DNA of 64,000 nt from Clostridia bacterium (GCA_017450965.1 JAFSSQ010000010.1:6424-70423); one strand, 5' to 3'; positions 44,062 through 62,017 are shown, counted from the first letter of the stretch. Notes: generated by a model from the letters alone, not told the origin. Numbers and translations are program-made.

Positions 44062-44124
44062 ATGTTTTCTCCTTCTTTTGAGGTATTTTGGAACCGGTTG
44101 TAAAAGCGGAAGGCGCCGGCGGGG

Positions 44125-45009: not shown

Positions 45010-45036
45010 ACTAAAACCCTCCTTTCGGACAAGCGG

Positions 45037-47718
45037 TCATTTTTTTGAAACTTCGATCTCCCACACAAACGACTGATAGAGGGTCGCCCGGGAGGTGATG
45101 ACCATCATGTAGCGGCCGCCCTCCCGCGTGTAAACGGAGGAGACGCGCGGCTCGTAGACCGCGCCCATCACGCCGCCCTGCTTGATGATCAGGACCGGAT
45201 CCGACCAGACGCCGTCCAGGGTCTTGGCCGTCCGCATCACGATACTGTTTTTCAGGTCGCCCGCGTAGGCGGTGCAGTAGAGGATGACCCACTCGCCGAG
45301 GTATTCGTTATACATCACGCCGACGCCGCCGACCGCGGCTTCGACCGCCGCGTAGTTGCTCATCATCGCGTCGTACCCGCGCTCGAAGATCCCGTTGCCG
45401 TTTTCGTCCCGCCCGGTCATGTACTCGTAGGCGGAGAAATCCTCGATCTGAGACGCCTTTACGCGCATGATGCGGCAGGCGCCCTTGCGCCCGCCGGGAA
45501 CGCCGAAGACGTAGACCCACTCCCCGTCAAGGACGGGATAGAGCTGGGCAAGCCCGTAGAGGGGGACCTGCGCCACGGGATCGGAAACGTCCGTTCCCGC
45601 CGGCCAGCGCAGATCGGAGGAGATCTCCCAGCTGCGGCCCATATCGGTCGACTTGGCGAGCGCGCCGTAGTTGCAGGGCCAGCAGCCGTTGCGGCCCGTG
45701 GTGCCCCACGCGTTGACCGACATATAGTAGAAATAGAGGGTATCGCCGATCTTCAGCCCGCCCGTCGGGATCTTCGACTCCTCCGTTCCCTTTTTGTGCA
45801 GGGAGGGGAGGAACTCTCCGGCAAAGGGCTTGCTCTGGTAGCTGTCGCCCATGTAAAAGCCGTCGATCCGGATCCCGTCGGTGTAGTCAAAGTCGCTGGT
45901 AAAGGCAAGACTGTTCGCGCGCCAGGTCTTGCCGAGGCCGTCTTCGGAGTTGCTGTCCCCGAACGCCAGCAAAACCGAGTCGCCGCAGTCGATCATATAG
46001 CCGCCGCCCACGCGCGCGATATCGTAGTTCGAGAGGGTGCGGTTGTCTGAGTATTCCCCGGTAAGGAGGGAAACGAAGCGCAGACTTTCGACCCGGTAGA
46101 GGGAATAGGCGGGGTCGTCCAGGGTGCGCGATTTTTCGCTGTAAAGACCGGCGAGCTGCGCCGGGCTGTTTTCCCGCTTTTTCTGCTCGGCGATCAGGGC
46201 GTCGACGTCCGCGATGCGGGTCTTCGCGTCGGGGCCGAGCGCGTCTTTCTCCGCGTCGGTCAGCGGCGTCGTCGCGGAAAGCGTAACGGAGGGCGGATCG
46301 GTATAGCGGATCCCGTTTGCGGTGAGGGCGGGCGCCCGTACGGCAAGGCAGGAGGCGTCGTTTTTCTCGGTGACGGTAAAGGCGCTGCCCGTGAGGGATA
46401 CGGCGCTTCCGAGGAGGAGACGGGCGCCGGGGTTGCCCTTGGCGACGGTCCCGGCGGGGAAGCTCCCGCCCGTGACGCAGAGGACCGTCTTCGCGTAGGT
46501 GGAAACGGTGATCGCGTCGGAGGTTACCTGGCGGACGGCCAGATCCTTTGAGAGGAAGGTGCCGCCGGTGATCTTGAGCGTGACGCTGCCGGTGACCGCG
46601 ACGGGATTGCGGTTCGGGTTGCTCTCGGTGCGGGAGAGGAGGTAGACCGGACCATCAAAGGTCCCGCCGCTGATCTCCATATAGACCGTGCCGGCGACGC
46701 TGTTCATCCCGGAGGCGGAGTTGAAATCCTGTCCCGAGGAGGCAATAAAACGTCCGCCCTTGACATAAACGCAGAAGGAGACGCCCTCGTCGACCGTGCC
46801 GAACGCGGACTTCGCGTCCATCCGGCTGTTGCCGCCGCGCAGATACTGCCAGGTCCCGGATTTCACCGTAACGGCGGCGTCCTTGTGGCAGCCGATCTGG
46901 TAGGCGTTCATATGGAGCGAGGAGGGGGCGTTGTAGCCGCCGAGCAGCGCGATATAAGTCGAAACGCCGCTCGCCCGGGAACACTCAACGTCCGCGCCGA
47001 CCGTAACGTTGTTGTACTGGAAACAGAAGAAGAGGTTGTTCTTTTCGGCGGAGACGGCCAGTCCCTCGAGAAGATAGTCGCCGTAGAAGTTCGCGTCGGC
47101 GGAGAAGGAGAGCTTCGCGCCGCTTGTCTTCCGGTAGTCGATCCCGTCCCGGACCGAGGTCAGGGTAACGGTCGCTTCGTTGGAGGGAAAGTAGTAGGTC
47201 TCGGGGAAGGTAAGCGGGCCGCAGACGACGACCGTGCCGCCCGTTTTTTTGGTTTTGCCGAGGCCGTCGGCAAGGGCGGCGGCGTTCTCGGGCGAGGAGC
47301 CGTCCTTTTTCCCGGCGCCTTTCTCTGTGACGAAGACGACCGGCGCGGCGGGATCCCCGCCCTGCAGCCCTTCGGGCGCTTCGGTCTCCGGCGCCGCCGT
47401 TTCGGGCGCCGCGGTCTCCGCCGATCCGCCCTGAGGGGGGGCGGTCTCCGGCGTTTCGGTCTCTGCGGGCTCCGTTTCCCGGCCGGCCGTCTCCGGCGCG
47501 GCGGTTTCCGTCTCACCGGTCTTTTTCGTTTCCGGCGCGGCGGTCTGCGGGACCTCCGTTTGTTCGGCGGTCCCGGCGGGCAGAGGCGCTTTTCCCGTTT
47601 CCGCCGTTTCTGACGAGACGGGGGAGGACGGCGCGGCGGGCGCGCAGCCGATCGGCAGAAGGGAGCAGAGCAGGACCAAAGCAAGCAAAGAGTGTCCGGT
47701 GCGACTCGTTCGTTTCAC
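45037..47718 (-). CDS. Lipoprotein: beta-solenoid-like domain + DUF4185/GH183-like domain lacking predicted catalytic residues
   Basis: Lipobox PIGC, ETAAP linker, DGSSPENA domain; FGD, WRAN, IPTGG, YYMSV, STDMGRSW. GxDLG replaced by RVGGG and VSE by VGG. Confidence 0.72.
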   Translation of the reverse strand: MKRTSRTGHSLLALVLLCSLLPIGCAPAAPSSPVSSETAETGKAPLPAGTAEQTEVPQTAAPETKKTGETETAAPETAGRETEPAETETPETAPPQGGSAETAAPETAAPETEAPEGLQGGDPAAPVVFVTEKGAGKKDGSSPENAAALADGLGKTKKTGGTVVVCGPLTFPETYYFPSNEATVTLTSVRDGIDYRKTSGAKLSFSADANFYGDYLLEGLAVSAEKNNLFFCFQYNNVTVGADVECSRASGVSTYIALLGGYNAPSSLHMNAYQIGCHKDAAVTVKSGTWQYLRGGNSRMDAKSAFGTVDEGVSFCVYVKGGRFIASSGQDFNSASGMNSVAGTVYMEISGGTFDGPVYLLSRTESNPNRNPVAVTGSVTLKITGGTFLSKDLAVRQVTSDAITVSTYAKTVLCVTGGSFPAGTVAKGNPGARLLLGSAVSLTGSAFTVTEKNDASCLAVRAPALTANGIRYTDPPSVTLSATTPLTDAEKDALGPDAKTRIADVDALIAEQKKRENSPAQLAGLYSEKSRTLDDPAYSLYRVESLRFVSLLTGEYSDNRTLSNYDIARVGGGYMIDCGDSVLLAFGDSNSEDGLGKTWRANSLAFTSDFDYTDGIRIDGFYMGDSYQSKPFAGEFLPSLHKKGTEESKIPTGGLKIGDTLYFYYMSVNAWGTTGRNGCWPCNYGALAKSTDMGRSWEISSDLRWPAGTDVSDPVAQVPLYGLAQLYPVLDGEWVYVFGVPGGRKGACRIMRVKASQIEDFSAYEYMTGRDENGNGIFERGYDAMMSNYAAVEAAVGGVGVMYNEYLGEWVILYCTAYAGDLKNSIVMRTAKTLDGVWSDPVLIIKQGGVMGAVYEPRVSSVYTREGGRYMMVITSRATLYQSFVWEIEVSKK

Positions 47719-47763
47719 GGCGTTCTCCTTTTCAATCCGGATCGGGAAATGCGTTATCCGTTT

Positions 47764-50205
47764 TCAGCCTTTTTTGGAGAGTTCGATTTCCCAGATGATG
47801 GAATTGTAGATATCCCAGCGCGAGGTGATGAGCATCATATAGCGCCCGCCCTCCCGCGTGTAAGCGGAACAGACGCGCGGCTCGTAGACGGCGCCGAAGG
47901 TCGCCTGCGACATAACGAGGACCGCCTCGGACCACTTGCCGTCAAGGGTCTTCGCGGCGCGCATCACGATGCTGTTTTTCAGGCTGCCCGTCTCCGGCGT
48001 GCAGTAGAACATCAGCCATTCGCCGAGGTATTCGTTGTACATCACGCCGACGCCGCCGACGCACTTGTCCACCGCGGCGCAGTTGGTCATCATCGCCTTC
48101 TCGCCGCGCTCGAAGATCGCGTTGCCGTTTTCGTCCCGCCCGGTCATATACTCGTAGGCGGTGAAGTTTTCGATCTGGGACTGTTTCACGCGCATCAGAC
48201 GGCAGTAGCCCCTGCGTCCGCCCGGTACGCCGAAGAAGTAGACGAAATCTCCGCTGAGGACGGGATAGAGCTGCGCAAAGCCCCATTCCGGGATCTCCTC
48301 GACGGGGTCGTCGACGTCGGTCCCCGCCGGCCAGCGCAGGTCGGAGGGCGTTTCCCAGCTGCGGCCGAAGTCGGTCGACTTGGCGATCCCGCCGTAGTTG
48401 CAGGGCCAGCAGCCGTTCCGGTCGGTCTCCCGCCAGCTCGCGACGGACATATAGCAGAAGTAGAGGGTATCGCCGATCTTTATCCCGCCCGTCGGGATCT
48501 TCGACTCTTCGGTCTTGTTCTTCGTGTCGTGCCCCGAAAGGAGGAACTCGCCGGAGAACGGCGCGCTCTGATAGGTATCGCCCATATAGAAGCCGTCCAG
48601 CGTGATCCCGTCGGTGTAGTCCCGATCGGTCGTGAAGGCGAGGGCGTTCGCGCGCCACGGTTTGCCGAGCTCGCCCTCGGGGTTGCAGTCGCCGAACGCG
48701 AGGAGGGTCGTATCGCCGCAATCGATCATATAGCCGCCGCCCGCGCCCGCGATATCGTAGTTGGTGATCGTTTTATTGATCGAATACTCGCCCGTCAGCA
48801 TCGAAACGAACTTCACGCTGCGCAGCGCGTCGAGGGAGTAGAGTTTATCGGGGTCGCGCAGACGCATCGAGGACGCCGGCGTGTTCTGTTCCAGCTTCCG
48901 GACCTTCGCCAGCGCGGCGGCGGTCTCGGAGATCAGGCTCTTTTCCTCTTCCGCGGTGAGGGGGCCGGTTTTCGGCTTCGTCTCGGGGAAGGGAGGCTCG
49001 GTGTAGGAAGGGGCGTTCGCCTTCAGGGTCGGCGCGGCGATCTGATCGGCGCTGCCGGAGAGGGTCTTTGTAAAGGACTTCGCGGTCACGCCCACGCCGT
49101 CGCTGAGGAGGACGCTGCTGCCCGATTCGCCCGTGGCGACCGTTCCCGCCGGGAAGGCGCCGCCGGAGACGCAGAGAACCGTTTCCGCGTGAGAGGAGAG
49201 GGCGGTCTTGTCGGAGGTGGTCTGGCGGACGGCCAGCTCCTTCGAGCGGAAGGTGCCGCCGGTGATCTTCAGCGTGACGCTGCCGGTAACGGACACGGGA
49301 TAGAGCTCCGTGTTGCTCCCGGTGCGGGAGAGGAGATAGACCGGGCCCTCAAAGGTCCCGCCGCTGATCTCCATATAGACCGTACCGGCGACGCTGTTCA
49401 TGCCGGAGGCGGAGTTGAGATCCCGTCCCGAGGCGGCGGAAAAGCTCCCGCCCTGCACGAAGATCGCAAAGGTGACGCCCTCGTCCACGGTGCCGAAGGT
49501 GGACTTCGCCTGGGTGCGGCGGTTGCCGCCGCGCAGGTACTGCCAGGAGCCGCCCTTCACCGTGACGGCGGCGTCCGCATGGCAGCTGACCTGTTCGACG
49601 TTGCGGTAGGCGCTGGAGGGGACGTTGTAGCCGCAGATCAGCGCGATGTCGGTCGAAACGCCGGACGCGCGGGTGCACTCTACGTCCGCGCCGAAGGTCA
49701 CGTTGTTGTACTGGAGGCAGAAGAGCAGGTCGGCTTTCTCGGCGGAGATCGTCAGGCCGTCAAAGAGATAGTCGCCGTAAAAGAAGGCGTTCGAGGAGAA
49801 GGCGAGCTTCGCGCCCGCCGCCGTCCGGTAGTCGACGCCCTCCCAGACGGAGGTCAGGGTAACGGAGGCGCCGTTGGAGGGGAAGAAATAATCTTCGTCA
49901 AAGGAAAGCGGCCCGCAGACGACGACGGTGCCGCCCGCTTTTTTGGTTTTGCCGAGGCCGTCGGCGAGGGTGGCGGCGTTCTCGGGCGAGGTGCCGTCCT
50001 TTTCGCCGGCGCCGTCCTGCGTCACGAAGACGGTCGCCGCTTCCGCGGCAAAATCGTCCTCGGGAAGGGCGGTGGTGCTGTCCTCCGGCGGGACGGACGG
50101 CTTATCGCAGGAGCCGAGCGCCGCGGCGCAGAAAAGGAGCGAAAGGATCATCGAAAGGATCCGGAAAAGCGGAGACGTGCGGGAGGCGTTTTTTGGTTGC
50201 TTCAT
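47764..50205 (-). CDS. Tandem paralog: lipoprotein with beta-solenoid-like + DUF4185/GH183-like domains lacking predicted catalytic residues
   Basis: Lipobox LGSC; colinear with 45037-47718; GAGGG and VGG at the catalytic positions. ATG 50205 with GGAG RBS. Confidence 0.72.
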   Translation of the reverse strand: MKQPKNASRTSPLFRILSMILSLLFCAAALGSCDKPSVPPEDSTTALPEDDFAAEAATVFVTQDGAGEKDGTSPENAATLADGLGKTKKAGGTVVVCGPLSFDEDYFFPSNGASVTLTSVWEGVDYRTAAGAKLAFSSNAFFYGDYLFDGLTISAEKADLLFCLQYNNVTFGADVECTRASGVSTDIALICGYNVPSSAYRNVEQVSCHADAAVTVKGGSWQYLRGGNRRTQAKSTFGTVDEGVTFAIFVQGGSFSAASGRDLNSASGMNSVAGTVYMEISGGTFEGPVYLLSRTGSNTELYPVSVTGSVTLKITGGTFRSKELAVRQTTSDKTALSSHAETVLCVSGGAFPAGTVATGESGSSVLLSDGVGVTAKSFTKTLSGSADQIAAPTLKANAPSYTEPPFPETKPKTGPLTAEEEKSLISETAAALAKVRKLEQNTPASSMRLRDPDKLYSLDALRSVKFVSMLTGEYSINKTITNYDIAGAGGGYMIDCGDTTLLAFGDCNPEGELGKPWRANALAFTTDRDYTDGITLDGFYMGDTYQSAPFSGEFLLSGHDTKNKTEESKIPTGGIKIGDTLYFCYMSVASWRETDRNGCWPCNYGGIAKSTDFGRSWETPSDLRWPAGTDVDDPVEEIPEWGFAQLYPVLSGDFVYFFGVPGGRRGYCRLMRVKQSQIENFTAYEYMTGRDENGNAIFERGEKAMMTNCAAVDKCVGGVGVMYNEYLGEWLMFYCTPETGSLKNSIVMRAAKTLDGKWSEAVLVMSQATFGAVYEPRVCSAYTREGGRYMMLITSRWDIYNSIIWEIELSKKG

Positions 50206-50278
50206 TTTTGGTTTTTCTCCTTGGGTTATTCGCAGAAAGAGCGGATTTTCCCTCTTCATCACTATCTTACCCTATTTC

Positions 50279-50308
50279 ATTATATTTGAGGAGAACGGAA
50301 GTTGTCAA
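50279..50308 (-). promoter_or_regulatory. Consensus SigA promoter for the DUF4185-AraC-mhpFE-GRE run
   Basis: TTGACA-N18-TATAAT on the minus strand. Confidence 0.75.
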
Positions 50309-50313
50309 GATGT

Positions 50314-50326
50314 TTGGCATTTCTTG
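50314..50326. promoter_or_regulatory. Candidate operator TTGGCATWTCWWG (also at 20667-20679 and 29477-29489)
   Basis: Three copies, each in an upstream intergenic region of the catabolic locus. Confidence 0.5.
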
Positions 50327-50445
50327 GTTTTGTTTTCTTTTTTTCTTTGCCTGAGAGCGCCGCGGGGAGAACGCTTCGGATCGCTGCGGCGGAAAAAGCG
50401 GCGTTTTTTTGTTAATAAAAGGGAAAAAACGATACGCCGGGCGGA

Positions 50446-50474
50446 TTGACAAAAGAGGACGCGGGCGATATAAT
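50446..50474 (+). promoter_or_regulatory. Consensus SigA promoter for the partner-switching operon
   Basis: TTGACA-N17-TATAAT. Confidence 0.8.
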
Positions 50475-50550
50475 GGCATTATCATGCGGAAAGATGAACC
50501 GGAGAGCGGCGCCGCGGTTCCGCGGCGCCGACCGGAAAAGGAGAAGCAGT

Positions 50551-52698
50551 ATGCCTGAGAAAAGCATTCGGGATATGAACCGGCTCGAGCGGCAGCATTA
50601 TTCGCTTGCCGCCCGAACCTTCCGCGCCACGGTCATGGGGGCGATCCTCCTGGGGCTCGCGGCGCTCGTGTTCGGGCTCGGACTCTACGCGTACGCGCTG
50701 GGAGAACAGTGCGTCGCGGAAGCGTTCAATCTTTCCCGCACGACGGCGGCTCTGATGGAGCAGACCGTTGACGTCGGTCCCCTTGCCGAGGAGGTCATCA
50801 CGCGCTACCGCGCCCTTCCGGAGGAGCGCCGGCAGGAGATGGGAACAGACGCTTACCGGGCGGCGTTCGCCGATATTACCGAGCGCGAGGATTACCGGTA
50901 CGTGCGCGAGTTTCTTGCCGCCTTCCGGGAGACGAGCGAGGTCTACGATATCTATCTCGCCGCCTACGACCGCGAGAACTGCGCGATCGTCTATATCGCC
51001 GATCCCGAGGAGGACGAGGCGTACGTTTGCCTGCCCGGCGACTGGGAAAGCGTCCCGGAGCGGGAGGTAAACAAGTTCCTTTCCTGGGACGGCAGCGGCC
51101 GTCTCTACGACATCGGCAGCACGGAGAAATACGGCTGGCTCGCGACGAGCGGCGTCCCGATCAAAAACGCCGAGGGCGAGGAGGTCGCGTTCGTTCTCGC
51201 CGACGTTTCGCTGACCAGCATCGCGGGCAGGATGAAGAGCTTTCTCCTCCGGTACGCGATTACGATGTTCGTTCTCGTCAATCTGGTGGCGGTCTTTATG
51301 ACCCGGCACATGAAAAAAACGCTCGTCGCTCCGATCAACCGGATCGCGGAGGCGGCAAAAGAGTATATCCGGGACAAACAGGAAGGGAAGACCGATATCG
51401 ATCACTTCTCCAATCTGAAGATCGCGACGGGCGACGAGGTCGAAAACCTCGCGCTTCTGATGGCGGATATGGAAAAGGGCCTTTCCGACTACGAGGAGAA
51501 TCTCACGAAGATCACCGCAGAAAAGGAGCGCGTCGGCACCGAGCTGGCGCTGGCGACCCGGATCCAGGCGGATATGCTCCCGAACATTTTCCCCGCGTTC
51601 CCCGAGCGTCCCGACTTTGACGTGTACGCCTCGATGACCCCGGCGAAGGAGGTCGGCGGCGACTTCTACGACTTCTTCCTCGTGGACGACGAACACCTGG
51701 CGCTCGTGATGGCGGACGTTTCCGGCAAGGGGGTCCCGGCGGCGCTGTTTATGATGATCTCGAAGATCCTCGTGCAGAATTACGCGATGATGGGCCGCAG
51801 CCCGAAAGAGGTGCTGGAAGCGGTGAACGCGCAGATCTGCGCCAACAACCGCGAGGAAATGTTCGTCACGGTATGGTTCGGCATCCTCGATCTCACGACA
51901 GGCACCCTGACGGCCGCCAACGCCGGCCACGAGTATCCGGTGCTCAAGCAGCCGGACGGCGATTTTGAGCTGATCAAAGACAAGCACGGGTTCGTCATCG
52001 GCGGGATGGAGGGCGCGCGCTACAAGGAGTACGAGCTGAAGCTCGATCCGGGCGCCAAGCTCTTCCTTTATACCGACGGCGTTGCGGAAGCGACCGACAG
52101 CGCGGACGCCCTCTTCGGCACGGCGCGGATGCTGGAAACGCTGCGCGCCGCCCAGAACGAAGAGCCGAAGGAGATCCTCGAGGCCGTCGACCGCGCGGTC
52201 GCCCGCTTCGTCGGCGACGCGCCGCAGTTCGACGATCTGACGATGCTGTGTATGCATTATATCGGAAAGGAGCCCGGGAACATGAAGGATACGAAGGAAA
52301 TGACCGTGGAAGCGACCGTGGAAAACATTACCGCGGTGACCGACTTCGTCAACGCCGAGCTGGAGCGGCTCGACTGCCCGCTCAAGGCGCAGATGCAGAT
52401 CGACGTGGCGATCGACGAGCTCTTCGGCAACATCGCGCAGTACGCCTACCATCCCGAAACGGGATCGGCGACCGTGCGGGTCGAGGTGGAAAAAGAGCCG
52501 CTCGCCGTGGTGATCTCCTTTATCGACAACGGCAAGCCCTACGATCCGCTCGCGGCAGACGATCCCGACGTTACCCTTTCCGCGGAGGAGCGGAAGGCGG
52601 GCGGGCTCGGCGTCTTCCTCGTCAAGAAGACGATGGACGCCGTGAGCTATGAGTATAAAGACGGAAAAAACATTCTGAAGATCAAGAAAAACATCTGA
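50551..52698 (+). CDS. Membrane sensor-HAMP-SpoIIE/RsbU PP2C phosphatase fused to a C-terminal RsbW-like HATPase
   Basis: Two TMs, HAMP, EVGGDFYD, ADVSGKG, NAGH, YTDG, DDLT; then DELFGNIAQYAY, DNGKPYDP, GGLG. Confidence 0.9.
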   Translation: MPEKSIRDMNRLERQHYSLAARTFRATVMGAILLGLAALVFGLGLYAYALGEQCVAEAFNLSRTTAALMEQTVDVGPLAEEVITRYRALPEERRQEMGTDAYRAAFADITEREDYRYVREFLAAFRETSEVYDIYLAAYDRENCAIVYIADPEEDEAYVCLPGDWESVPEREVNKFLSWDGSGRLYDIGSTEKYGWLATSGVPIKNAEGEEVAFVLADVSLTSIAGRMKSFLLRYAITMFVLVNLVAVFMTRHMKKTLVAPINRIAEAAKEYIRDKQEGKTDIDHFSNLKIATGDEVENLALLMADMEKGLSDYEENLTKITAEKERVGTELALATRIQADMLPNIFPAFPERPDFDVYASMTPAKEVGGDFYDFFLVDDEHLALVMADVSGKGVPAALFMMISKILVQNYAMMGRSPKEVLEAVNAQICANNREEMFVTVWFGILDLTTGTLTAANAGHEYPVLKQPDGDFELIKDKHGFVIGGMEGARYKEYELKLDPGAKLFLYTDGVAEATDSADALFGTARMLETLRAAQNEEPKEILEAVDRAVARFVGDAPQFDDLTMLCMHYIGKEPGNMKDTKEMTVEATVENITAVTDFVNAELERLDCPLKAQMQIDVAIDELFGNIAQYAYHPETGSATVRVEVEKEPLAVVISFIDNGKPYDPLAADDPDVTLSAEERKAGGLGVFLVKKTMDAVSYEYKDGKNILKIKKNI

Positions 52699-52710
52699 AA
52701 GAGGTAGGAT

Positions 52711-53007
52711 ATGACGATCGAAAAAACCAAAACCGGAACGGCCCTTACCCTTGCCCCGGAAGGCCGCCTGGATACCGTGACGGCGCCGGAGTTCGAGGCG
52801 GCGATCGCGGAGAACGCGGAGGGCGTGACGGAGCTTTCCCTCGACTTTGCAAAACTTGACTACATCTCCTCGGCGGGACTCCGCGTGCTTCTTTCCGCGC
52901 AGAAACGGATGAACGCCGTCGGGAAGATGACCGTGAAAAACGTGAACGAAACGATCGCCGAGATCTTTGAGATCACCGGCTTTTCCGACATTCTTACGAT
53001 CGGGTAA
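52711..53007 (+). CDS. STAS anti-anti-sigma factor (RsbV/SpoIIAA-like)
   Basis: GRLDT, LDYISSAGLRVL, IFEITGF. Confidence 0.93.
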   Translation: MTIEKTKTGTALTLAPEGRLDTVTAPEFEAAIAENAEGVTELSLDFAKLDYISSAGLRVLLSAQKRMNAVGKMTVKNVNETIAEIFEITGFSDILTIG

Positions 53008-53019
53008 ACGGGCGGCGCG

Positions 53020-54774
53020 ATGATCAGAAAGATTTTCAGACAGATGCTCGTCACGCAGATCATCTCCGCGATGACGGTGATGCTTTGTATGCTGGTGGAC
53101 AGCATCATGATCGGCCGCTTCCTCGGCGTGAACTCGATGACCGCCTACGGACTGGCCACGCCGGTCCTCCTCGTCTTCGCCGCCTTCGGCAGTATGCTTT
53201 CGGCGGGGATCCAGGTGATGTGCGGCAAAACGATGGGCAGCGGCGATATGGAAGCGACCAACGGCTGCTTTTCCGTTTCCGTCGCGCTCGCCGCGGCGAT
53301 CTCTCTTGTCGGCACCGCGGCGGTGCTGCTCTTCACCGATCCGATCTGCGTTCTCCTCGGCGCCGGGCAGAATACGCCGGACAACGAGGTGTTCCGCCTT
53401 ACGCGCGACTATCTGCGCGGCTTTATCATCGGCGCGCCCGCGTTCATCTTCGCGCAGATCATGGTGCCTTTTATGCAGATCTCCGGCAGCCGGACCCGGC
53501 TCGTCGCCGCGGTCGCGGCGATGACGGTCGCGGATATCGCCCTCGACGTTCTCAACGTTTTCGTCGTGCACGAGGGGACCCTCGGCATGGGGCTTGCGTC
53601 GAGCATCAGCTATTATATCGCCTTCGTGATCGGCGCGCTTTACTTCTTCAAAAAGAGCTGTATCTTCCGTTTCCGCCCCGCGCTCCTGCGGAGGAAGACC
53701 GCGCTTGACCTGATCCGCTACGGGCTGCCGACGGTGATCAACCAGATCAGTCTGGTGCTGTTGGTGTTCGTACTCAACAAGGTGCTGCTCGAGGTCGGGC
53801 AAAACCTCGCCGTCGCCGCCTATTCGGTGATCTCGACGGTCGGCAATCTCTGCTACTGCTTCGGCTCCGGCATCGCGTCCGTCGCGCTGCTCCTCTCCTC
53901 GATCTTTTACAGCGACGAGGATAAGACCGAGCTGCGCGCGCTGATCAAAACCATGTTCTTCTACGCCGTCGCGCTGGACCTTGCGATGATCGCCGCCGTG
54001 CTGATCCTTGCCCCGCTGCTTGTCGGACTGTTTCTGACCGGGGAGCCGGAGGCGGCGGATATGGCGATCCTCGGGCTGCGGCTTTTCTCCCTCTCGCTGC
54101 TCCCCTGCTCGCTGAATACCTCCTACAAGAATTACCTGCAGGGGGTAAACCAAACAAAGTTCACGCAGGCGATCTCGGTGATGCAGAACTTTGCTTTCAC
54201 CGCGCTTTTCGCCTTCCTTCTCAGCCGGTTTCTCGGAACGACCGGCGTCTGGCTCGGCTATCTCTGCGGCGAAACGCTGACCCTTCTCGTCATCGTGATC
54301 GCGGTATGGAAGCGCTGCGGCCGCGTTTCCTTCTCCGCCGAGGCGTTCTCCTATCTCCCGCCCTCGTTCGGCGCGGGGGAGGGGGACTGCATGGAGGAGA
54401 CCCTCACCGATCTCGACGGCGCCGTGGCCGTTTCCGCGAAGGCGGCGGAGTTCTGCCGTCTGCACGGGGAGAACGCGCGCAACGGCGCGATGATCGCGCT
54501 CTGTATCGAGGAGATGGTCTCCAATATCGTGGAGCACGGCTTCACGAAGGATAACCGGGAGCACAGCGTCGACGTCCGGCTCCTTTTCAAGGGGGAAAAA
54601 CGCATGATCCGCATCCGCGACAACTGTCTCCATTTCGACCCGCTGCGCTATCTCGATCTCCACAAAACGGACGACCCGACCGCGCATATCGGGATCCGGA
54701 TGGTGATGAAAACGGTCAAAAACGCAAACTACGTCAACTCGCTCGGTCTGAATAACCTGACGCTGGAGATGTGA
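53020..54774 (+). CDS. MATE family transporter fused to a C-terminal RsbW-like HATPase
   Basis: VDSIMIGRFLG, two MATE repeats; tail IEEMVSNIVEHG...IRDN...FDP...IGIRMV. Confidence 0.85.
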   Translation: MIRKIFRQMLVTQIISAMTVMLCMLVDSIMIGRFLGVNSMTAYGLATPVLLVFAAFGSMLSAGIQVMCGKTMGSGDMEATNGCFSVSVALAAAISLVGTAAVLLFTDPICVLLGAGQNTPDNEVFRLTRDYLRGFIIGAPAFIFAQIMVPFMQISGSRTRLVAAVAAMTVADIALDVLNVFVVHEGTLGMGLASSISYYIAFVIGALYFFKKSCIFRFRPALLRRKTALDLIRYGLPTVINQISLVLLVFVLNKVLLEVGQNLAVAAYSVISTVGNLCYCFGSGIASVALLLSSIFYSDEDKTELRALIKTMFFYAVALDLAMIAAVLILAPLLVGLFLTGEPEAADMAILGLRLFSLSLLPCSLNTSYKNYLQGVNQTKFTQAISVMQNFAFTALFAFLLSRFLGTTGVWLGYLCGETLTLLVIVIAVWKRCGRVSFSAEAFSYLPPSFGAGEGDCMEETLTDLDGAVAVSAKAAEFCRLHGENARNGAMIALCIEEMVSNIVEHGFTKDNREHSVDVRLLFKGEKRMIRIRDNCLHFDPLRYLDLHKTDDPTAHIGIRMVMKTVKNANYVNSLGLNNLTLEM

Positions 54775-54790
54775 CAAGGAGGAGAGAGAT

Positions 54791-55357
54791 ATGGATCTTT
54801 TCAATAAAGCGATCGCGTTCGCGGCGGAGGCGCACGCCGGGACGCGGCGGAAAAACACGGATACGCCGTACATCCTGCATCCGCTGGAGGTCGCCGCGAT
54901 CGCGGGAACGATGACAAGCGACCCGGAGGTGCTCGCCGCCGCCGTGCTGCACGATACGGTGGAGGATACGCCGACCGAGCCCGGCGAGATCCGGGAGCGG
55001 TTCGGGGAGAGGATCGCCGCGCTCGTCGCGTCGGAAACGGAGGACAAGCGCCCCGGCGTCCCGCCGGAGGAAAGCTGGCAGATCCGCAAGGAGGAATCGC
55101 TTGAGAAGCTGAAAAACGCCGCCGATCCCGGCACAAAGATCCTCTGGCTTTCCGATAAACTCTCGAATATGCGCTCGTTTGCCCGGCTCCGCCGCCGGGA
55201 GGGCGACGGGCTCTGGGCGCGTTTTAACCAGAAGGATCCCGCCGGACAGGCGTGGTATTACCGGACCGTGGCCGCCTATACGGAAGAACTTTCCGATACC
55301 GACGCATGGCGCGAATACACCGATCTGATCGAAACGGTTTTTGAAGGAGTGGAATAA
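54791..55357 (+). CDS. HD-domain hydrolase, small alarmone hydrolase (Mesh1/SpoT-HD)-like
   Basis: AHAGTRRK, PYILHP, AAVLHDTVEDT, ETEDK, SDKLSN. Confidence 0.82.
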   Translation: MDLFNKAIAFAAEAHAGTRRKNTDTPYILHPLEVAAIAGTMTSDPEVLAAAVLHDTVEDTPTEPGEIRERFGERIAALVASETEDKRPGVPPEESWQIRKEESLEKLKNAADPGTKILWLSDKLSNMRSFARLRRREGDGLWARFNQKDPAGQAWYYRTVAAYTEELSDTDAWREYTDLIETVFEGVE

Positions 55358-55359
55358 GT

Positions 55360-56544
55360 ATGATGAACCTTACGCACGCAAGCGATAACGGCGCTCTGAC
55401 GATCGGGATCGCCGGGCATATCGACTCGACGAACGCCGCGGAGCTGGAAAAAGAGGTCTCGGCGCTCTGCGAGCGGTTTCAGCCGACCTCCGTTTCTCTC
55501 GATTGCGACAAGCTCGCTTATATTTCCTCGGCGGGGCTCCGCGTTGTGCTCCGCCTGAAAAAGGCGATCGCCGATACCAAACTGATCAACGTCAGCCCGG
55601 AGGTATACGAGGTCTTCGATATGACCGGGTTTACCGAGATGATGGAGATCCGCAAGGCGTACCGCGTGATCTCGGTCGAAGGGTGCGAGGTCATCGGGCA
55701 GGGCGCAAACGGCAAGGTGTACCGCATCGATCCGGACACGATCGTCAAGGTCTATCTTAACCCGGACGCGCTGCCGGAGATCCACCGCGAGCGCGAGCTG
55801 GCGCGCTCCGCGTTCGTCCTCGGCGTGCCGACGGCGATCCCCTACGACGTTGTCCGCATCGAGGGAGGCGGCTACGGCTCGGTGTTCGAGCTGCTCAACG
55901 CGACCAGCTTTGCCAAACTTCTTATCCGCGGGGAAAAGACCGTGGACGAGATCGCCGCCATGAGCGTGGATCTGCTCAAGCTGATCCATTCCACCGTCGT
56001 CAAGCCCGATACGATGCCCGATATGCGCGCCGTCGCGCTCGACTGGGCGGCGTTTCTCCGGGATTATCTGCCCGCCGACCAGTACGAAAAGCTCCATGCG
56101 CTGATCGCCGCCGTGCCGGAGGACGATCACATGATGCACGGCGACTATCATATCAAAAACGTCATGCTCCAGAACGGGGAGACCCTCTTGATCGATATGG
56201 ACACCCTCTGCCACGGGCACCCGGTCTTCGAGCTGGCGAGTATGTATAACGCCTACGTCGGGTATTCCGAGCTGGATCCCGACATCATCCGGAACTTCCT
56301 CGGCATCTCGCAGGAGACCGGCCGCGAGCTCTGGAGCCGGATGCTGGCGCTCTATTTCGCCGGAGCGGACGAAAACGCCCTGAAGCAGGCGGAGGAAAAA
56401 GCGATGATCGTGGGGTATACGCGCATCATGCGCCGCACGATCCGCCGCGGCGGGCTGAACAGCGAAGAGGGCAGAGCGGTCATCGAAAACTGCCGCCGGC
56501 GCTTCTCCGACCTTCTCCCGAGAACGGAGACCCTTACCTTCTGA
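55360..56544 (+). CDS. STAS domain fused to an APH/choline-kinase-like phosphotransferase
   Basis: N-terminal YISSAGLR STAS; IGQGANGKVY, VKVY, HGDYHIKNV, IDMD. Confidence 0.85.
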   Translation: MMNLTHASDNGALTIGIAGHIDSTNAAELEKEVSALCERFQPTSVSLDCDKLAYISSAGLRVVLRLKKAIADTKLINVSPEVYEVFDMTGFTEMMEIRKAYRVISVEGCEVIGQGANGKVYRIDPDTIVKVYLNPDALPEIHRERELARSAFVLGVPTAIPYDVVRIEGGGYGSVFELLNATSFAKLLIRGEKTVDEIAAMSVDLLKLIHSTVVKPDTMPDMRAVALDWAAFLRDYLPADQYEKLHALIAAVPEDDHMMHGDYHIKNVMLQNGETLLIDMDTLCHGHPVFELASMYNAYVGYSELDPDIIRNFLGISQETGRELWSRMLALYFAGADENALKQAEEKAMIVGYTRIMRRTIRRGGLNSEEGRAVIENCRRRFSDLLPRTETLTF

Positions 56545-56576
56545 CGCGCTCCGCGCCGCCGGAACAAAACATACGG

Positions 56577-56616
56577 AAAACGCCCGTCTGCAGGAAACAG
56601 ACGGGCGTTCTTTTCT
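56577..56616. terminator. Bidirectional intrinsic terminator
   Basis: aacgcccgtctg/cagacgggcgtt stem followed by a T-rich tail. Confidence 0.82.
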
Positions 56617-56631
56617 TTGTCCGGCGACGGA

Positions 56632-58041
56632 TCAGGAGGCCGGCGGCGTTCGGTCTTTCGCGCCGTTTTTCTTTTTTGCCGAGAGGACGAGGAAGACGGT
56701 ATAGGCGACGAAGAGGAGAAAGAAGATCCCGAGGGAGAGAAAGCATCCTTTCAGGCTCCCCGCGCTCAGATTGAGCAGAAGGAGGAGCGGGGCGACCGCC
56801 GCCATGGCGGGGAACTGAGAAAGGATGAAGATGCTGCCGGTCGGGGTTTCGTAGTTCGGATCCGTCTCGCGCAAGAGGATCATCCCGTTGGAGGCGGTGC
56901 CGGTCAGGGTGCCGAAGTTTACGAGAAACGCCTCGTGCTCGAAGCCCGCAAAGCACCGCTTGCAGATAAAGCGGACGTAAAAAACGGTCGCGGCCGCGCC
57001 AGCCGCCGAAAGGGCGGCGATCATCCACGCGTACTTGGCCACCATGCGGATATCGATGGCGGCGACGCCGGCGATGATCATCATATCGAAGGCAAAGCCG
57101 GAGATACGGTCCATCTGGTAGTTGTTGATGTAGCGGCTCGTGACGACTTTTTTGCGCTCAAAGCCGCGCATGGCCGCTTTGATCGCCGTGGCGCTGATCA
57201 CGCCCCAGATGAAATTGAAGCCCCAGGCGATATCGTTGAAGAGCTTGACGCCCGTCGCGTCGCTGAGCATGGCGAACAGGAACATGATCCCGAAGGCGCC
57301 GGCGTAGGCAAGCGCGACGAATGCGAACTGGATCGAGATCTTATCGACCGACTCGCAGTCCTCGATCTCGTTTTTTCCTTCAAAATCCTCCACCGTCCGG
57401 ACGGCGACGCCGGTTTTCGGGACGATCTGCCCCTTCTTTTTGAAGACGTTGATGTAAGCCACGCCGACCACCGAAGCGACGATAAAGCCGATCGAGGCGA
57501 TCGTCAGCCCGAAGCTGCCGTTGCCGTCAAAACCGTAGGCGCCGAAGTTGACGTCCCAGGTCAACGCGTTCCCCGGCCCCTGGCCGAAGCCGAGGGGAAG
57601 CAGCACGCCCGCGTCGTAAAAGAGCGCCGCGCCCGCCGCGTAAAAGAGGAGGGAGACCACGATCCCCACGACCGCCTGCAGCATATAGGTCCCGCCGGTG
57701 AGTAAGCCGTTTTGCACTGCGAGGAGCCCGAGCTTGCGGTTTTTGTTCTTTTCCACCGTCTTGAGCGCCATGGCGATAAAGCCGATCCCGAGCGCGTGGT
57801 AGGTCACGACCTGCATGATCCGCGCGTCGGTCAGCGGAGAGCCGCTCACCTTTTCGGCGATGAGATTGGCAAAAAAGAGCAAAAGCCCCCCGATCAGGGC
57901 GCTGGGGATAAACGCCTTCCGCAAAAACGGCACGCTCCGCCTCAGCGCGTTGCCGATAAGCAGCGCGATGAGGAGAAGGCCGAGGTTGACCGCAACGCTC
58001 CATACGGCGTCGTACTGGGTCAGATCAAATCGCCACGTCAT
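56632..58041 (-). CDS. gltS: Sodium/glutamate symporter family protein
   Basis: IPSALIGG, LGFGQGPGNA, NFGTLTGTASNG; about 12 TMs. Confidence 0.75.
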   Translation of the reverse strand: MTWRFDLTQYDAVWSVAVNLGLLLIALLIGNALRRSVPFLRKAFIPSALIGGLLLFFANLIAEKVSGSPLTDARIMQVVTYHALGIGFIAMALKTVEKNKNRKLGLLAVQNGLLTGGTYMLQAVVGIVVSLLFYAAGAALFYDAGVLLPLGFGQGPGNALTWDVNFGAYGFDGNGSFGLTIASIGFIVASVVGVAYINVFKKKGQIVPKTGVAVRTVEDFEGKNEIEDCESVDKISIQFAFVALAYAGAFGIMFLFAMLSDATGVKLFNDIAWGFNFIWGVISATAIKAAMRGFERKKVVTSRYINNYQMDRISGFAFDMMIIAGVAAIDIRMVAKYAWMIAALSAAGAAATVFYVRFICKRCFAGFEHEAFLVNFGTLTGTASNGMILLRETDPNYETPTGSIFILSQFPAMAAVAPLLLLLNLSAGSLKGCFLSLGIFFLLFVAYTVFLVLSAKKKNGAKDRTPPAS

Positions 58042-58042
58042 A

Positions 58043-59233
58043 TCAGTCTCCCGGATAAACAGATTTTTCCGTTTCGGTTTTTTGCGTTTTTTCGCCGAGC
58101 CGGTTCAAAAGAAAGAGGTATTTGACAGGATTAAAGCGTTTTCCGCCGCGCAGGGTATAGTCGTTTTCTTCATAGCGGAAGGTGAGGTTCCGCCCCGATA
58201 CGGCGGAGACCGAAGCGATCTTCGCCGTCTCGAAGACGCGCCCGCCGCACCGCAGCTGCGCACCGGTCAGGGTCAGCTTGCCCACGGCAAGCCGTTTTTT
58301 CTTTTCAAAGGGGGTCGAGAAGAAGAGCGTTACCCCCTCGTCGCTGAAAACCGTACCGTCCGGCAGGATCTCCATCTTCCGCACGGCGTTTTTCTGGAAG
58401 TTCCACCAGTCCACCAGCCGCCCGTACCCCTCAAGCCCGTGAAGGCGCAGATCCTCGCCGTACTCCGCGCGCAGACCGCAGCTCCGGCAGGTAAGGAAGG
58501 CGCCCTCGGAAAAAAGCGTTTCCGTTTGGCCGCAGCGCGGACAGGCAAAGAGCATCCGTTCGAGGTATTCCGCGCGCCGGCGGCTTTTGTAGCGGGCGCC
58601 GCTGTCGCTGTCAAAGACGGTCAGGGTCTCGGCGATCAGGCGGGAGAGCGCCCCGTCCTCCATCCCGGCGTATTCCGCGTACGGCAGCACGCGCCGGATC
58701 TCTCCGGTAAAGGGGCCGCGCCGCTTTTTGTGTTTGAAGCGAGGACTGACGCCGGTGCCGCCGCGGATGTTGAAGAGGACGAGGGTCGCCTTCGTCTTTT
58801 TGAAAAAAGAGGGAAGGCCCGGCGCGATCGGATAGCAAAACTCCGCGTAAGTGCGGTTCCCCTCGGGAAAGAGGAGGATCGACGCGCCGCTTTTCAGGAG
58901 CCGGAACATTTTGAGGACCGTTTTGGCGTCGGAGGCTTCCTTTTTTTTCGGAATGACCGAAAAATAAGAAAAAAGACGGCTCCGGAGCTTTCCCGAAAAG
59001 ATATGATCGGTCGCGACGGGATAGACGGGGGCGTCAAAAACGGGGAAGAGGCAGAAGGGGTCTTCGTCGGTCTGGTGATTGCTGAGGACGATCACGGGCT
59101 CCCCCTTTTTGATCCGGTACCGGTCGCGGCACCGGAAGCCGAGAAAGAGCCGCGTGTAGAGAAAGGAAAGCCGCCGTATGAAGAAAAACCACAGCTTATG
59201 CGATGGTTTTGCGTACCGTTCGTCTCGTTTCAT
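58043..59233 (-). CDS. Lysophospholipid acyltransferase (PlsC-like) with C-terminal extension
   Basis: NHQTDED (HxxxxD) and FPEGNRT. Start at MKRDERY (59233). Confidence 0.82.
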   Translation of the reverse strand: MKRDERYAKPSHKLWFFFIRRLSFLYTRLFLGFRCRDRYRIKKGEPVIVLSNHQTDEDPFCLFPVFDAPVYPVATDHIFSGKLRSRLFSYFSVIPKKKEASDAKTVLKMFRLLKSGASILLFPEGNRTYAEFCYPIAPGLPSFFKKTKATLVLFNIRGGTGVSPRFKHKKRRGPFTGEIRRVLPYAEYAGMEDGALSRLIAETLTVFDSDSGARYKSRRRAEYLERMLFACPRCGQTETLFSEGAFLTCRSCGLRAEYGEDLRLHGLEGYGRLVDWWNFQKNAVRKMEILPDGTVFSDEGVTLFFSTPFEKKKRLAVGKLTLTGAQLRCGGRVFETAKIASVSAVSGRNLTFRYEENDYTLRGGKRFNPVKYLFLLNRLGEKTQKTETEKSVYPGD

Positions 59234-59309
59234 GGGATGTTCGGAGCCGTTCTTCGCCCTTTCGTGTGGGATGCCCGCCGCCGCGGGAACGGAGGAAAAC
59301 GATAATGCT

Positions 59310-59338
59310 ATTCTAACACAGCGACAGCCTTTTTGCAA
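59310..59338 (-). promoter_or_regulatory. Promoter for acyltransferase-gltS
   Basis: TTGCAA-N17-TAGAAT with TG extension. Confidence 0.6.
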
Positions 59339-59444
59339 GGTTTTGGTGAAAAATTGCGCCGCCGCGCCGTCGGACCGGGAAAAAAGGCGGCGCCGGAGAA
59401 CGTTCCGGCGCCGTTTTTCGGTTTCTTTTTTTACGGGACGGCGG

Positions 59445-60032
59445 TCAGCCGCCGTAGGTCGTGATGATCTCCTCCGCGACCTGGCGCTTCGGAACACAGC
59501 GGTCCATCGCCTGCTTTTCCACGAACCGGTGCGCGTCCGGCTCGGTCATTTTCAGCTCGCTGATGAGCAGCCACTTCGCCCGGTTGACGAGCCGGATCTC
59601 GTTCATTTTTTCCTCGATGGAAAGCGTTTTGCTTTCCGTCTGCCGGATCCGCTCCCGCGCGCTGATCAGCCAGCCGGCCGCCGTCTGGAAGAGGGACCTC
59701 GCGATCGGCTTCTGCATCAGGAACACCCCGTGCCCGACCAGCCTGTCGTAAACGTCGGGATAGTGTTCGGCTTTGGCGAGGAAGAGGACCACGGTGCCGC
59801 CGGAGGAGACCGAGTCGACGGCAAAGCGGACGCCTGGGTCGTCGGGGAGCGGGGAATTGACGATGATAAAATCGAAATCCCGCTCCGCCGCGGCGCGCTT
59901 GGCCGCGCTGACGGCGCTTACCGTGCGGACCGGGGAAAAGGAGGCGGCGGGGAATAGCTCACCCAGAGCCTGATTGAAGCGTTCCGCCGAAGAAACGACA
60001 AGGACGCTGTAACACTGTTCTTGCAGACTCAA
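59445..60032 (-). CDS. ANTAR antitermination regulator with a pseudo-receiver domain (NitR/AmiR-like)
   Basis: C-terminal VNRAKWLLI...EPDAHRFVEKQAMD. Receiver has VVSS and IIVN where acidic residues are expected. TTG start after AAGGAGG. Confidence 0.85.
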   Translation of the reverse strand: MSLQEQCYSVLVVSSAERFNQALGELFPAASFSPVRTVSAVSAAKRAAAERDFDFIIVNSPLPDDPGVRFAVDSVSSGGTVVLFLAKAEHYPDVYDRLVGHGVFLMQKPIARSLFQTAAGWLISARERIRQTESKTLSIEEKMNEIRLVNRAKWLLISELKMTEPDAHRFVEKQAMDRCVPKRQVAEEIITTYGG

Positions 60033-60068
60033 ACGCTCTCCCTCCTTTCCGCCGGCGGACACGCGCCG

Positions 60069-61280
60069 TTATTGACAGTAGGCTTTTAAGATCTCGGCCG
60101 GAACGCTCTCCCGGATAAAGGCGTCGGACGCCGCCGCGGCGCGCGCCTCGGTCAGATCGGCCGGCAGCTTTTGCAGGCCGGAGAGAACGTCCTCGCCCGC
60201 CCGGTAAAGGTTGAGATCGAACGGCTCCGGCAGGGCGATCTTCTCTCCGATCCCGCGCAGCCCCGCCCGGATCATCAGCGTCATGGCGAGATAGGGATTG
60301 GCCGTCGGGTCGGGGGAGCGGAGCTCCGCCCTCCGGTATTCGCCGTTCGCCGCGGGGAGGCGGATCAGCTGGGAGCGGTTTTCCGCCGAAAAGGAAACGT
60401 AGCGCGGCGCCTTCATCTCCCCGAGCCGGGCGTAGGACGCGGCGGTGGGGTTAAAGAAGAGCGTGCAGGGAACGGCCTTGTCCAGCACCCCCGCGATCAC
60501 CCGGAAGAGATGTTCGGAGGAGGGGTCGGGCCGGACGGAGCAGTTGATATGAAAGCCGTTTCCCGGCGCGTTTTCCAGCGGCTTCGGCGAAAAGTCGGCA
60601 AAAAGGCCGCTTCGCTGCGCCGCCGTTTTCACAACGGTCCGGAAGGTCATCACGTTGTCGGCGGCGGTCAGCGCCGTCGTATAGCGGAAGTCGATCTCGT
60701 TCTGTCCGGGTCCCTCCTCGTGATGGGAGCTTTCCGGGCAAATGCCCATCTTCTCGAGCGTCAGGCAGATCTCGCGGCGGACGTTTTCCCCCTTGTCCTC
60801 CGGCGCGATATCCATATAGCCGGCGCGGTCGTAGGGCGTTTTGGTCGGAAGACCGCGTTCGTCGAGCTCAAAGAGGTAAAACTCTTCTTCCGCCCCGAAG
60901 TAAAAGGTCAGGCCCGCCGCCGCGGCGTCGTCTTCCGCTTTTTTCAAAAGACTTCTCGTATCGCATTCAAACGGTCTGCCGTCCGGATAGGCGATCCGGC
61001 AGAACATCCGCACGACCTTGCCCTGCTCCGGCCGCCACGGGAGCCAGGTGAGCGTTTCCGGCTCGGGATGGAGGAACAGGTCGGAGCGGGCTTCGTCCCC
61101 GCCGAACCCGGCGACGGCGGAAGCGTCGAACGCGATCCCGTATTCAAACGCGCGCGGCAGCTCGTCCGGCATGATCGAGATATTTTTCTGTTTGCCGAAC
61201 ACGTCGCAGAACGCGAGCCGGATAAACTTCACGTCCTCCTCCGCCACGTACTGAAGGACCTCGTCTTTTGAATATTTCAT
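60069..61280 (-). CDS. glnA: Glutamine synthetase type I-like protein
   Basis: FDAS, EEEFYLF, HHEEGPGQNEI, PKP...GNGFHIN, NRSQLIRLP, ELRSPDPTANPYL. Confidence 0.85.
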   Translation of the reverse strand: MKYSKDEVLQYVAEEDVKFIRLAFCDVFGKQKNISIMPDELPRAFEYGIAFDASAVAGFGGDEARSDLFLHPEPETLTWLPWRPEQGKVVRMFCRIAYPDGRPFECDTRSLLKKAEDDAAAAGLTFYFGAEEEFYLFELDERGLPTKTPYDRAGYMDIAPEDKGENVRREICLTLEKMGICPESSHHEEGPGQNEIDFRYTTALTAADNVMTFRTVVKTAAQRSGLFADFSPKPLENAPGNGFHINCSVRPDPSSEHLFRVIAGVLDKAVPCTLFFNPTAASYARLGEMKAPRYVSFSAENRSQLIRLPAANGEYRRAELRSPDPTANPYLAMTLMIRAGLRGIGEKIALPEPFDLNLYRAGEDVLSGLQKLPADLTEARAAAASDAFIRESVPAEILKAYCQ

Positions 61281-61296
61281 CTCATTCTCCTGTTTT

Positions 61297-62016: not shown

Positions 62017-62017
62017 A

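Follow-up and report, generated by a model that had tools for sequence, protein, structure and literature searches.

A 64,000-nucleotide stretch of DNA from a rumen Clostridia bacterium (GCA_017450965.1, JAFSSQ010000010.1:6424-70423), referred to here as the window, contains a compact operon of five genes on the + strand, G1 to G5 (50551-56544), that probably encodes a sigma-independent partner-switching circuit, the outputs of which are proteins and not transcription. Modules of the RsbU/V/W type normally gate a sigma factor. An initial annotation of the window had proposed that STAS phosphorylation in this operon controls an enzyme and a transporter, so as to couple an extracellular signal to efflux or detoxification and to the turnover of a nucleotide messenger. 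The core of that proposal survived the present analysis: the genes have no sigma factor as a partner and are co-conserved, and the two most plausible outputs are a fusion of a STAS domain with an APH-fold kinase (STAS-APH) and a MATE transporter that carries an RsbW-like domain (MATE-GHKL). The role in efflux or detoxification and the presence of two kinases were not upheld.

The first gene, G1 (50551-52698), encodes a 715-residue fusion of a sensor, a PP2C phosphatase and an RsbW-type serine kinase, and has the sequence GGAG ahead of its ATG at 50551. It is followed by G2 (52711-53007), a single-domain STAS protein of 98 residues, G3 (53020-54774), a 584-residue MATE transporter with a C-terminal RsbW-like domain, G4 (54791-55357), a 188-residue protein of the HD_4 small-alarmone-hydrolase type, and G5 (55360-56544), the 394-residue STAS-APH fusion. 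The assignments were made with Pfam and, for G2, also with TIGR00377; the MATE, HD and APH-like domains reported initially were all recovered. As had also been claimed, there is one promoter for five closely spaced genes. A sigma-70-type promoter, TTGACA-17-TATAAT, at 50446-50474 (+) matches the consensus at 12 of 12 positions, although this is a pattern match only, and the successive gaps between the genes are 12, 12, 16 and 2 nt. The operon is followed at 56579-56609 by a bidirectional intrinsic terminator with a stem of 12-15 bp, 8 GC pairs and a T run on either strand.

The target of the module is not likely to be a sigma factor. None had been seen adjacent to the operon, and no sigma-70-family gene was found on the window's contig. 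The source genome, which like those of most relatives is a metagenome bin (2.07 Mb, 98% complete), has 14 sigma-70-family genes, namely RpoD, SigF, SigG, SigE, SigK, a SigH-like factor and eight ECF factors. The only other strong HATPase_c_2 match in the genome was SpoIIAB, encoded between spoIIAA and sigF, with one further weak match inside a 436-residue frame on contig C70. Similarly, the only other SpoIIE domain was in an 854-residue frame that was taken to be the sporulation SpoIIE. The search was extended to 150 related loci, of which 80 were seeded on G5, 63 were seeded on G3 in genome contigs and 7 were added by exact-protein look-up. Open reading frames of the sigma-70 family were present at 2 of 87 STAS-APH loci and 6 of 63 MATE-GHKL loci, compared with the 11-12% or so expected from the sigma density of this genome. 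Those that were found were unrelated to the module: RpoD, ECF factors, a sigG encoded on the other strand or an entire spoIIAA-AB-sigF operon. A distal or linked sigma target was therefore rejected, since neither the genome inventory nor the related loci gave anything above background.

These results bear directly on the conventional explanation, that the operon is an ordinary Rsb system in which the G1 kinase is the anti-sigma factor for a distal sigma factor, with the remaining genes as passengers. PP2C, RsbW and STAS are indeed the canonical domain set, and the NCBI name of the G5 homologues is 'anti-sigma factor antagonist'. However, no SigB was found in the 2.07-Mb genome, the only sigma factors of the SigB/F/G type are SigF, which has its own SpoIIAA and SpoIIAB, and SigG, no sigma factor is linked to the related loci beyond background, and natural fusions, described below, join the kinase domain covalently to STAS-APH. 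A standard Rsb arrangement with a distal sigma factor, the outcome that the initial annotation had named as contradicting its proposal, is thus unsupported and must be considered highly improbable.

The conservation of the neighborhood, a check that the initial annotation had called for, showed that the genes are co-conserved as interchangeable modules with STAS-APH as the core and MATE-GHKL as an accessory. The STAS-APH family is large, with at least 8000 clusters at 90% identity and at least 689 clusters or representatives at 50% identity (E < 1e-30), and nearly all of the matches listed were about 390 residues long and covered both domains. Among the 56 well-flanked G5-seeded loci, an RsbW-like kinase was found within 6 kb of STAS-APH in 37, a small STAS protein in 33 and a PP2C in 30, 24 of these being fused to the kinase as in G1, while MATE-GHKL was present in only 6. 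The complete five-gene order of the window recurs at three loci, L088, L089 and L094, at 97, 83 and 74% identity, respectively. A STAS domain was encoded within about 8 kb of MATE-GHKL at 29 of 63 loci, where about 3% would be expected from the density of STAS genes in this genome (4 per 2.07 Mb), so that the linkage exceeds chance. Some part of a partner switch was within 8 kb at 34 of these 63 loci, and at 6 loci MATE-GHKL and a small STAS were the sole parts.

Natural fusions provided the most direct connection between the kinase and its presumed target. The RsbW-like domain is fused to the C-terminal end of STAS-APH at eight of the loci (L004, L090, L096, L097, L099, L128, L146 and L149) and in three further proteins (P0249, P0268 and P0281), and one protein, P0244, has the reverse order, GHKL-STAS-APH. 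The occurrence of these fusions at either end is strong evidence that an RsbW-like kinase acts on the STAS domain of STAS-APH. An AlphaFold2 (AF2) model of a natural STAS-APH-GHKL fusion had a predicted local distance difference test (pLDDT) score of 94.5 and a predicted TM-score (pTM) of 0.77.

G1 has the features of a membrane-bound input protein that can both add and remove phosphate. Hydropathy analysis gave two hydrophobic, putatively transmembrane segments, residues 23-51 and 230-254, separated by about 180 residues; from this topology only, G1 is presumed to respond to an extracellular signal. The single PP2C of the operon, as originally counted, is encoded at 51685-52257 (+) and is a near full-length match to the PP2C/SpoIIE family (PF07228, E 2.3e-52, covering positions 1-190 of the 192 in the profile), and its motifs for metal binding, GGDFYD, DVSGKG, YTDG and FDD, are all legible in the translation. 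The kinase domain, designated GHKL1 (residues 587-713, 52309-52689 (+)), is of the RsbW/SpoIIAB type (PF13581, HATPase_c_2, E 1.3e-20), and the E..N of the N box, the DxG of the G1 box and the GGLG of the G2 box are conserved in its family of 56 members. Across the related loci, the N-terminal sensor part of the PP2C-GHKL proteins is highly variable (phmmer values from 25 to 750, lengths up to about 1200 residues) and the PP2C and kinase parts are conserved. The same switch would thus appear to be fed by different inputs at different loci.

There are two STAS domains in the operon, both with the motif YISSAG, as had been observed initially (residues 51-56 of G2 and 54-59 of G5). G2 was identified as a STAS protein by PF01740 (E 2.9e-15) and by TIGR00377, with a score of 69.3 bits that is over the cut-off; the STAS domain of G5 is encoded at 55387-55656 (+) (Pfam, E 5e-14). 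The second serine of the motif aligns with the phosphoserine of SpoIIAA (1th8), so the predicted phospho-acceptors are Ser54 of G2 (codon 52870-52872, +) and Ser57 of G5 (codon 55528-55530, +).

The transporter, G3, has both repeats of the MatE family (PF01554, E 7.6e-24, 84.7 bits versus a cut-off of 24.9) and about 12 hydrophobic segments, in agreement with a MATE fold; its NCBIfam score for TIGR00797, 136.4, is just under the cut-off of 147.4. The cytoplasmic C-terminus of the protein consists of a second RsbW-like domain, designated GHKL2 (54424-54762 (+), PF13581, E 1e-7, 32.4 bits versus a cut-off of 27.4). At least 490 clusters of MATE-GHKL proteins were found at 90% identity (E <= 0.001), and nearly all of the matches listed were 575-592 residues long.

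When 56 GHKL1-type and 135 GHKL2-type domains were aligned together with SpoIIAB of this genome, the two domains, which are 25% identical, proved to differ in the ATP site. In the GHKL2 family the N box is kept as EEMxNN, but the G1 box is RDNC, the DxG having become DNC with a change of glycine to cysteine in about 90% of the 135 members, and the G2 box is AHIGI, with the first glycine lost and the lid 2-3 residues shorter. In place of intact G1 (DxGxG) and G2 (GxxGxG) boxes, GHKL2 has RDNC and AHIGI as the conserved forms across the 135 members. These degenerate changes are themselves conserved, which argues that GHKL2 is under selection for a role other than that of a canonical ATP site. 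The operon had initially been credited with two RsbW-like kinases; the number of domains was correct, but the ATP-binding motifs are complete only in GHKL1. To judge from these motifs, the operon probably encodes one kinase, GHKL1, and one docking domain, GHKL2, and the simplest reading is that GHKL2 probably binds a STAS protein.

If instead both RsbW-like domains were active, GHKL2 would phosphorylate G2 or G5 and the transporter would be an input that reports its transport state. In keeping with this, GHKL2 scores over the Pfam cut-off for HATPase_c_2, retains the Glu and Asn of the N box and is strongly conserved, with 60-78% identity across hundreds of clusters. The loss of the G1- and G2-box glycines and the shortened lid speak against catalysis, and an intact GHKL1 accompanies MATE-GHKL at 26 of 63 loci, which suggests that the kinase function is supplied in trans. 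An active GHKL2 is consequently rather unlikely, and a docking domain remains the reading adopted here.

The kinase domain of G5 (55687-56544 (+), PF01636, E 3e-17, 63.6 bits versus 23.2) looks active, as judged from its residues. Ser57 of the STAS domain and Gly115, Lys130, Asn267 and Asp279 are invariant in 127 diverse homologues, down to 31% identity, and His260, Asp262 and Glu144 are at least 90% conserved. The HxDxxxxN catalytic loop, the metal-binding aspartate and the ATP-binding lysine are all present in G5. The AF2 model of the protein (pLDDT 97.1, pTM 0.88) implies that the STAS and kinase domains would be held in a fixed arrangement. The kinase domain had no match in the PDB by sequence, and G5 is not a member of TIGR02172 (90.8 bits versus a curated cut-off of 228.2). 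A Foldseek search gave aminoglycoside phosphotransferases APH(2'') and APH(3'), capreomycin phosphotransferase, MTR kinase and choline-kinase-like proteins as the top matches, with a probability of 1.00 and a target-normalised TM-score of about 0.55 (APH(2''), APH(3'), MTR kinase and ChoK-like proteins).

The nearest folds are thus aminoglycoside and capreomycin phosphotransferases, and the MATE part of G3 resembles the multidrug pumps FepA and MepA, at low scores. These similarities raise the possibility of an antibiotic or xenobiotic resistance cassette, in which the APH enzyme would inactivate a drug, the MATE protein would export it and the sensor would induce the response. However, G5 is only 12-20% identical to the resistance and other characterized kinases among the Foldseek matches, MATE-GHKL is as rare at STAS-APH loci as noted above, and the consistent neighbors or fusion partners of STAS-APH are nucleotide-type phosphoesterases (HD_4, PHP and HD-CE), not pumps. 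Moreover, the hosts are strict anaerobes, against which aminoglycosides are poorly active. A resistance cassette is therefore very unlikely, and no evidence was found for the efflux or detoxification function that had been assigned to the operon.

The pairing with phosphoesterases is represented in the window by G4, a clear member of the HD_4 family (PF13328, E 3.6e-24, 85.7 bits versus 27.2) with 7qoe (E 3e-23), 4yf1 and Mesh1 (3nr1/5vxa) as its relatives in the PDB. The residues His30, His54-Asp55, Glu58-Asp59, Asp122 and Asn126 are invariant in 41 operon-linked homologues. G4 is thus of the small-alarmone-hydrolase type, corresponding to the hydrolase part of Rel/SpoT, and looks active, its activity being a prediction from these residues. 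An HD_4 gene lies directly upstream of STAS-APH at 23 of the 56 well-flanked loci, always in that position. The earlier proposal had nucleotide-messenger turnover as an output, but the hydrolase is tied to STAS-APH and looks like the partner of the kinase and not like an independent output.

At 12 other loci (L004, L037, L043, L045, L046, L048, L062, L090, L096, L097, L128 and L146), a TrpH/YciV-like PHP protein is encoded next to STAS-APH, either directly downstream or inside the module, and none of the 12 has HD_4. The best matches of the PHP proteins were the 3',5'-nucleoside bisphosphate phosphatase family and RNase AM, all under the curated cut-offs, and their PDB relatives were 3e0f, 2yb1 and 7ug9. 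With about two clades among the PHP loci, few independent events are represented. From this distribution PHP looks like a non-homologous replacement of HD_4 as the phosphoesterase partner of the kinase. In the fusion proteins of the representative library (P0339, P0360, P0364 and P0253), STAS-APH is joined to PHP (P0253, in the order STAS-APH-PHP), to HD-CE (P0360, in the order HD-CE-STAS-APH), to a PolyA_pol-head nucleotidyltransferase or to the membrane domain of a Na+/H+ exchanger (P0364, with the exchanger domain first).

That two unrelated nucleotide-type phosphoesterases can replace one another suggests a substrate common to kinase and esterase, probably a nucleotide. It is possible, although this is offered as a tentative proposal that is more apt to fail than to hold, that STAS-APH and its phosphoesterase, HD_4 or PHP, are the maker and breaker of an undescribed phosphorylated nucleotide, probably phosphorylated at the 3' position. 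The switch would gate its synthesis in response to an outside signal and MATE-GHKL would link the same switch to transport. If so, this would be a new second-messenger-like system of gut and rumen anaerobes, made by a kinase fold that is not known for nucleotide signals.

The kinase could also be connected with the transporter more directly. In this alternative GHKL2 docks on the STAS domain of G5 and recruits the APH-fold kinase, so that the transported compound is phosphorylated at the membrane, which would either trap it once imported or modify it ahead of export, and G2 is a competitor. STAS-APH-GHKL fusions do adjoin MATE-GHKL at L004, L090, L097, L099, L128 and L149, and the exchanger fusion P0364 shows that a membrane transport domain can be attached to STAS-APH. 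The gene neighborhoods argue otherwise: MATE-GHKL occurs with a small STAS and no APH at 10 loci, compared with 2 that have APH and no small STAS, and the window has G2 next to G3 and G4 next to G5. Recruitment of G5 by the transporter is accordingly judged unlikely, and the small STAS protein is preferred as the partner of GHKL2.

In the mechanism that we infer, including its pairings, the signs of its effects, its signal and every substrate, G1 would be located in the membrane, where the domain of about 180 residues on the outside would set the balance between its own PP2C and its own RsbW-type kinase. These two activities would erase and write, respectively, the phosphate on the STAS serines, Ser57 of G5 and Ser54 of G2; a paralogue of G2 elsewhere in the genome would be a probable third target. 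By analogy with All4160 of Anabaena, the phosphorylation state of the G5 STAS domain would switch the attached kinase in cis, a form of control that is made credible by the published case of the Anabaena STAS-glycosyltransferase (PMC13555669). The unphosphorylated free STAS protein, G2, would dock on the probably kinase-dead GHKL2 domain of G3 and alter transport, an interaction that would mirror that of RsbV with RsbW, the transporter taking the part of the sigma factor. G4 would be the enzymatic partner of G5 and would probably act on the same small molecule, most likely a nucleotide, by taking off its phosphate or a related phosphoryl group.

Several observations weigh against this scheme. 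STAS-APH is found alone at 10 of the 56 well-flanked loci and MATE-GHKL alone at 13 of 35, so the partners are not obligatorily linked in cis. The tree of the small STAS proteins (98 columns) is mostly unresolved and gives no clean split by context, and so does not favor a particular STAS protein as the one that binds GHKL2. In addition, degenerate G1 and G2 boxes are no proof that ATP binding has been lost. In favor of the scheme, the 14 genomes with an isolated MATE-GHKL locus all encode a STAS protein, and 13 of them have at least two.

The unlinked paralogue of G2 is encoded on another contig of the same genome (C4:8941-9234, -); it is a STAS protein with 64% identity to G2 and the motif YISSAG. 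Directly upstream of it (C4:9271-10026, -) is the gene for a protein of about 208 residues, here called protein X, that had no match in Pfam or the PDB. Its homologues, recognizable by the motifs LRLRLLAEELxGM, SGKNAA and WDELEKSI, were found at 13 related loci, always next to a small STAS, MATE-GHKL or both, and at none of the 80 STAS-APH-seeded loci. Protein X may be a sixth component that belongs to the transporter arm. It could possibly have a degenerate GHKL fold, for which hhalign gave a probability of 2.8%.

The distribution of STAS-APH is patchy: when 300 genomes from across the class were sampled, the gene was present in 11. Sequences from Chloroflexota bins (L050, L055 and L063, Anaerolineaceae) are nested among those of Bacillota inside a starred clade (97*), and sequences from Actinomycetota bins (L038, L041 and L074, Atopobiaceae) are also nested among Bacillota with weaker support (79-88); both groups are 62-69% identical to G5 of the window. 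Barring contamination of the bins, the nesting of sequences from foreign phyla together with the patchy distribution indicates that STAS-APH has moved horizontally between bacteria of the rumen and gut.

The surroundings of the operon were also inspected. Upstream, two genes for DUF4185 lipoproteins (45037-50262, -) diverge from the operon and are served by a second sigma-70-type promoter (50308-50279, -) that likewise is a perfect 12/12 match, and beyond the terminator there is a convergent transporter-like gene (56632-58041, -). An antisense frame of 1550 residues (50482-55134, -) that covers G1 to G4 had no match in Pfam and was dismissed as a shadow open reading frame, since G1, G2 and G3 share one reading frame. 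No RNA leader or riboswitch was found with Rfam at E <= 0.1 over 44000-64000, and PADLOC, used to look for membership in a defense system, had no match for any of the five proteins. About 3.5 kb downstream of the operon are glnA and a GXGXG-domain gene (60069-62016, -). At two related loci, L001 and L002, glnA, the GXGXG gene and an ANTAR regulator are immediately 5' of the PP2C-GHKL and MATE-GHKL pair. The recurrence of these genes beside the module may reflect synteny or a link to nitrogen.

Partner switching is the textbook mechanism of sigma-factor control, and the known cases that are independent of sigma factors are few. In the searchable literature no paper was found that deals with TIGR02172, STAS-APH, a MATE transporter bearing an anti-sigma domain, or a partner switch that includes a small alarmone hydrolase. 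With STAS-APH and MATE-GHKL the logic of the partner switch is carried over to a kinase of the small-molecule type and to a secondary transporter. The case of the transporter, if confirmed, would constitute a new post-translational control of MATE pumps, in which an anti-sigma-like receiver is built into the pump. The pairing of kinase and hydrolase is a testable route to a phosphorylated metabolite of Clostridia that are abundant in the rumen and gut, and the proteins, which are small and soluble or else possess soluble domains, lend themselves to study in vitro.

The module shares with the Bacillus switches RsbU-RsbV-RsbW-SigB and SpoIIE-SpoIIAA-SpoIIAB-SigF the three domain families, the position of the STAS phosphoserine and the kinase motifs of GHKL1. 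It differs from them in that there is no sigma target, the kinase is fused to the phosphatase, and one RsbW-like domain, with a degenerate ATP site, is carried by a transporter. G4 resembles Mesh1, Lmo0812 (4yf1) and 7qoe/7qoc, which like G4 consist of a single HD_4 domain of about 190 residues with all of the Rel/SpoT hydrolase motifs, but unlike those hydrolases it is translationally coupled to a STAS-kinase inside a partner-switch operon.

In the SLC26/SulP family a C-terminal STAS domain regulates the transporter. Likewise, the STAS protein MlaB regulates the Mla ABC transporter of E. coli via MlaF (PMC7367683). In these systems, as proposed here, a membrane transporter is regulated through contact with a STAS domain. 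However, the STAS domain of SLC26/SulP and MlaB is fused or stably bound to the transporter, whereas in the Clostridia operon it is the anti-sigma-like partner that the transporter carries, and phosphorylation presumably controls a free STAS protein.

Sigma-independent partner switching is established for SypE/SypA and SiaABC (reviewed in PMC8256260). SypE of Vibrio fischeri, which acts on SypA without a sigma factor (PMC3610818, PMC4517449), and Rv1364c of M. tuberculosis, like G1, combine an RsbW-like kinase and a PP2C in one polypeptide that acts on a STAS domain. SypE is cytoplasmic and has the order kinase-REC-PP2C, whereas G1 is predicted to be membrane-anchored and has the order sensor-PP2C-kinase. 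Rv1364c, as mentioned in PMC9138534, also holds the STAS domain itself and feeds SigF.

The first STAS-enzyme fusion shown to be under such control was published in 2026, when genetic and in vitro experiments demonstrated that in Anabaena sp. PCC 7120 a PP2C and an RsbW-like kinase control a STAS-enzyme fusion, the three proteins being HenR, Alr3423 and All4160 (PMC13555669). As in the scheme proposed here, a PP2C/SpoIIE phosphatase and an RsbW-like kinase act on the N-terminal STAS domain of an enzyme, the system is free of sigma factors and the phosphorylation state of the STAS domain controls the enzyme. The enzyme of All4160 is a sugar transferase, while that of G5 is an APH-fold kinase. 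The input of the Anabaena phosphatase is a receiver domain, whereas here it appears to be a membrane sensor, and phosphatase and kinase are in one polypeptide. Finally, the Anabaena module has neither a transporter arm nor a hydrolase partner, both of which are present in the Clostridia operon.

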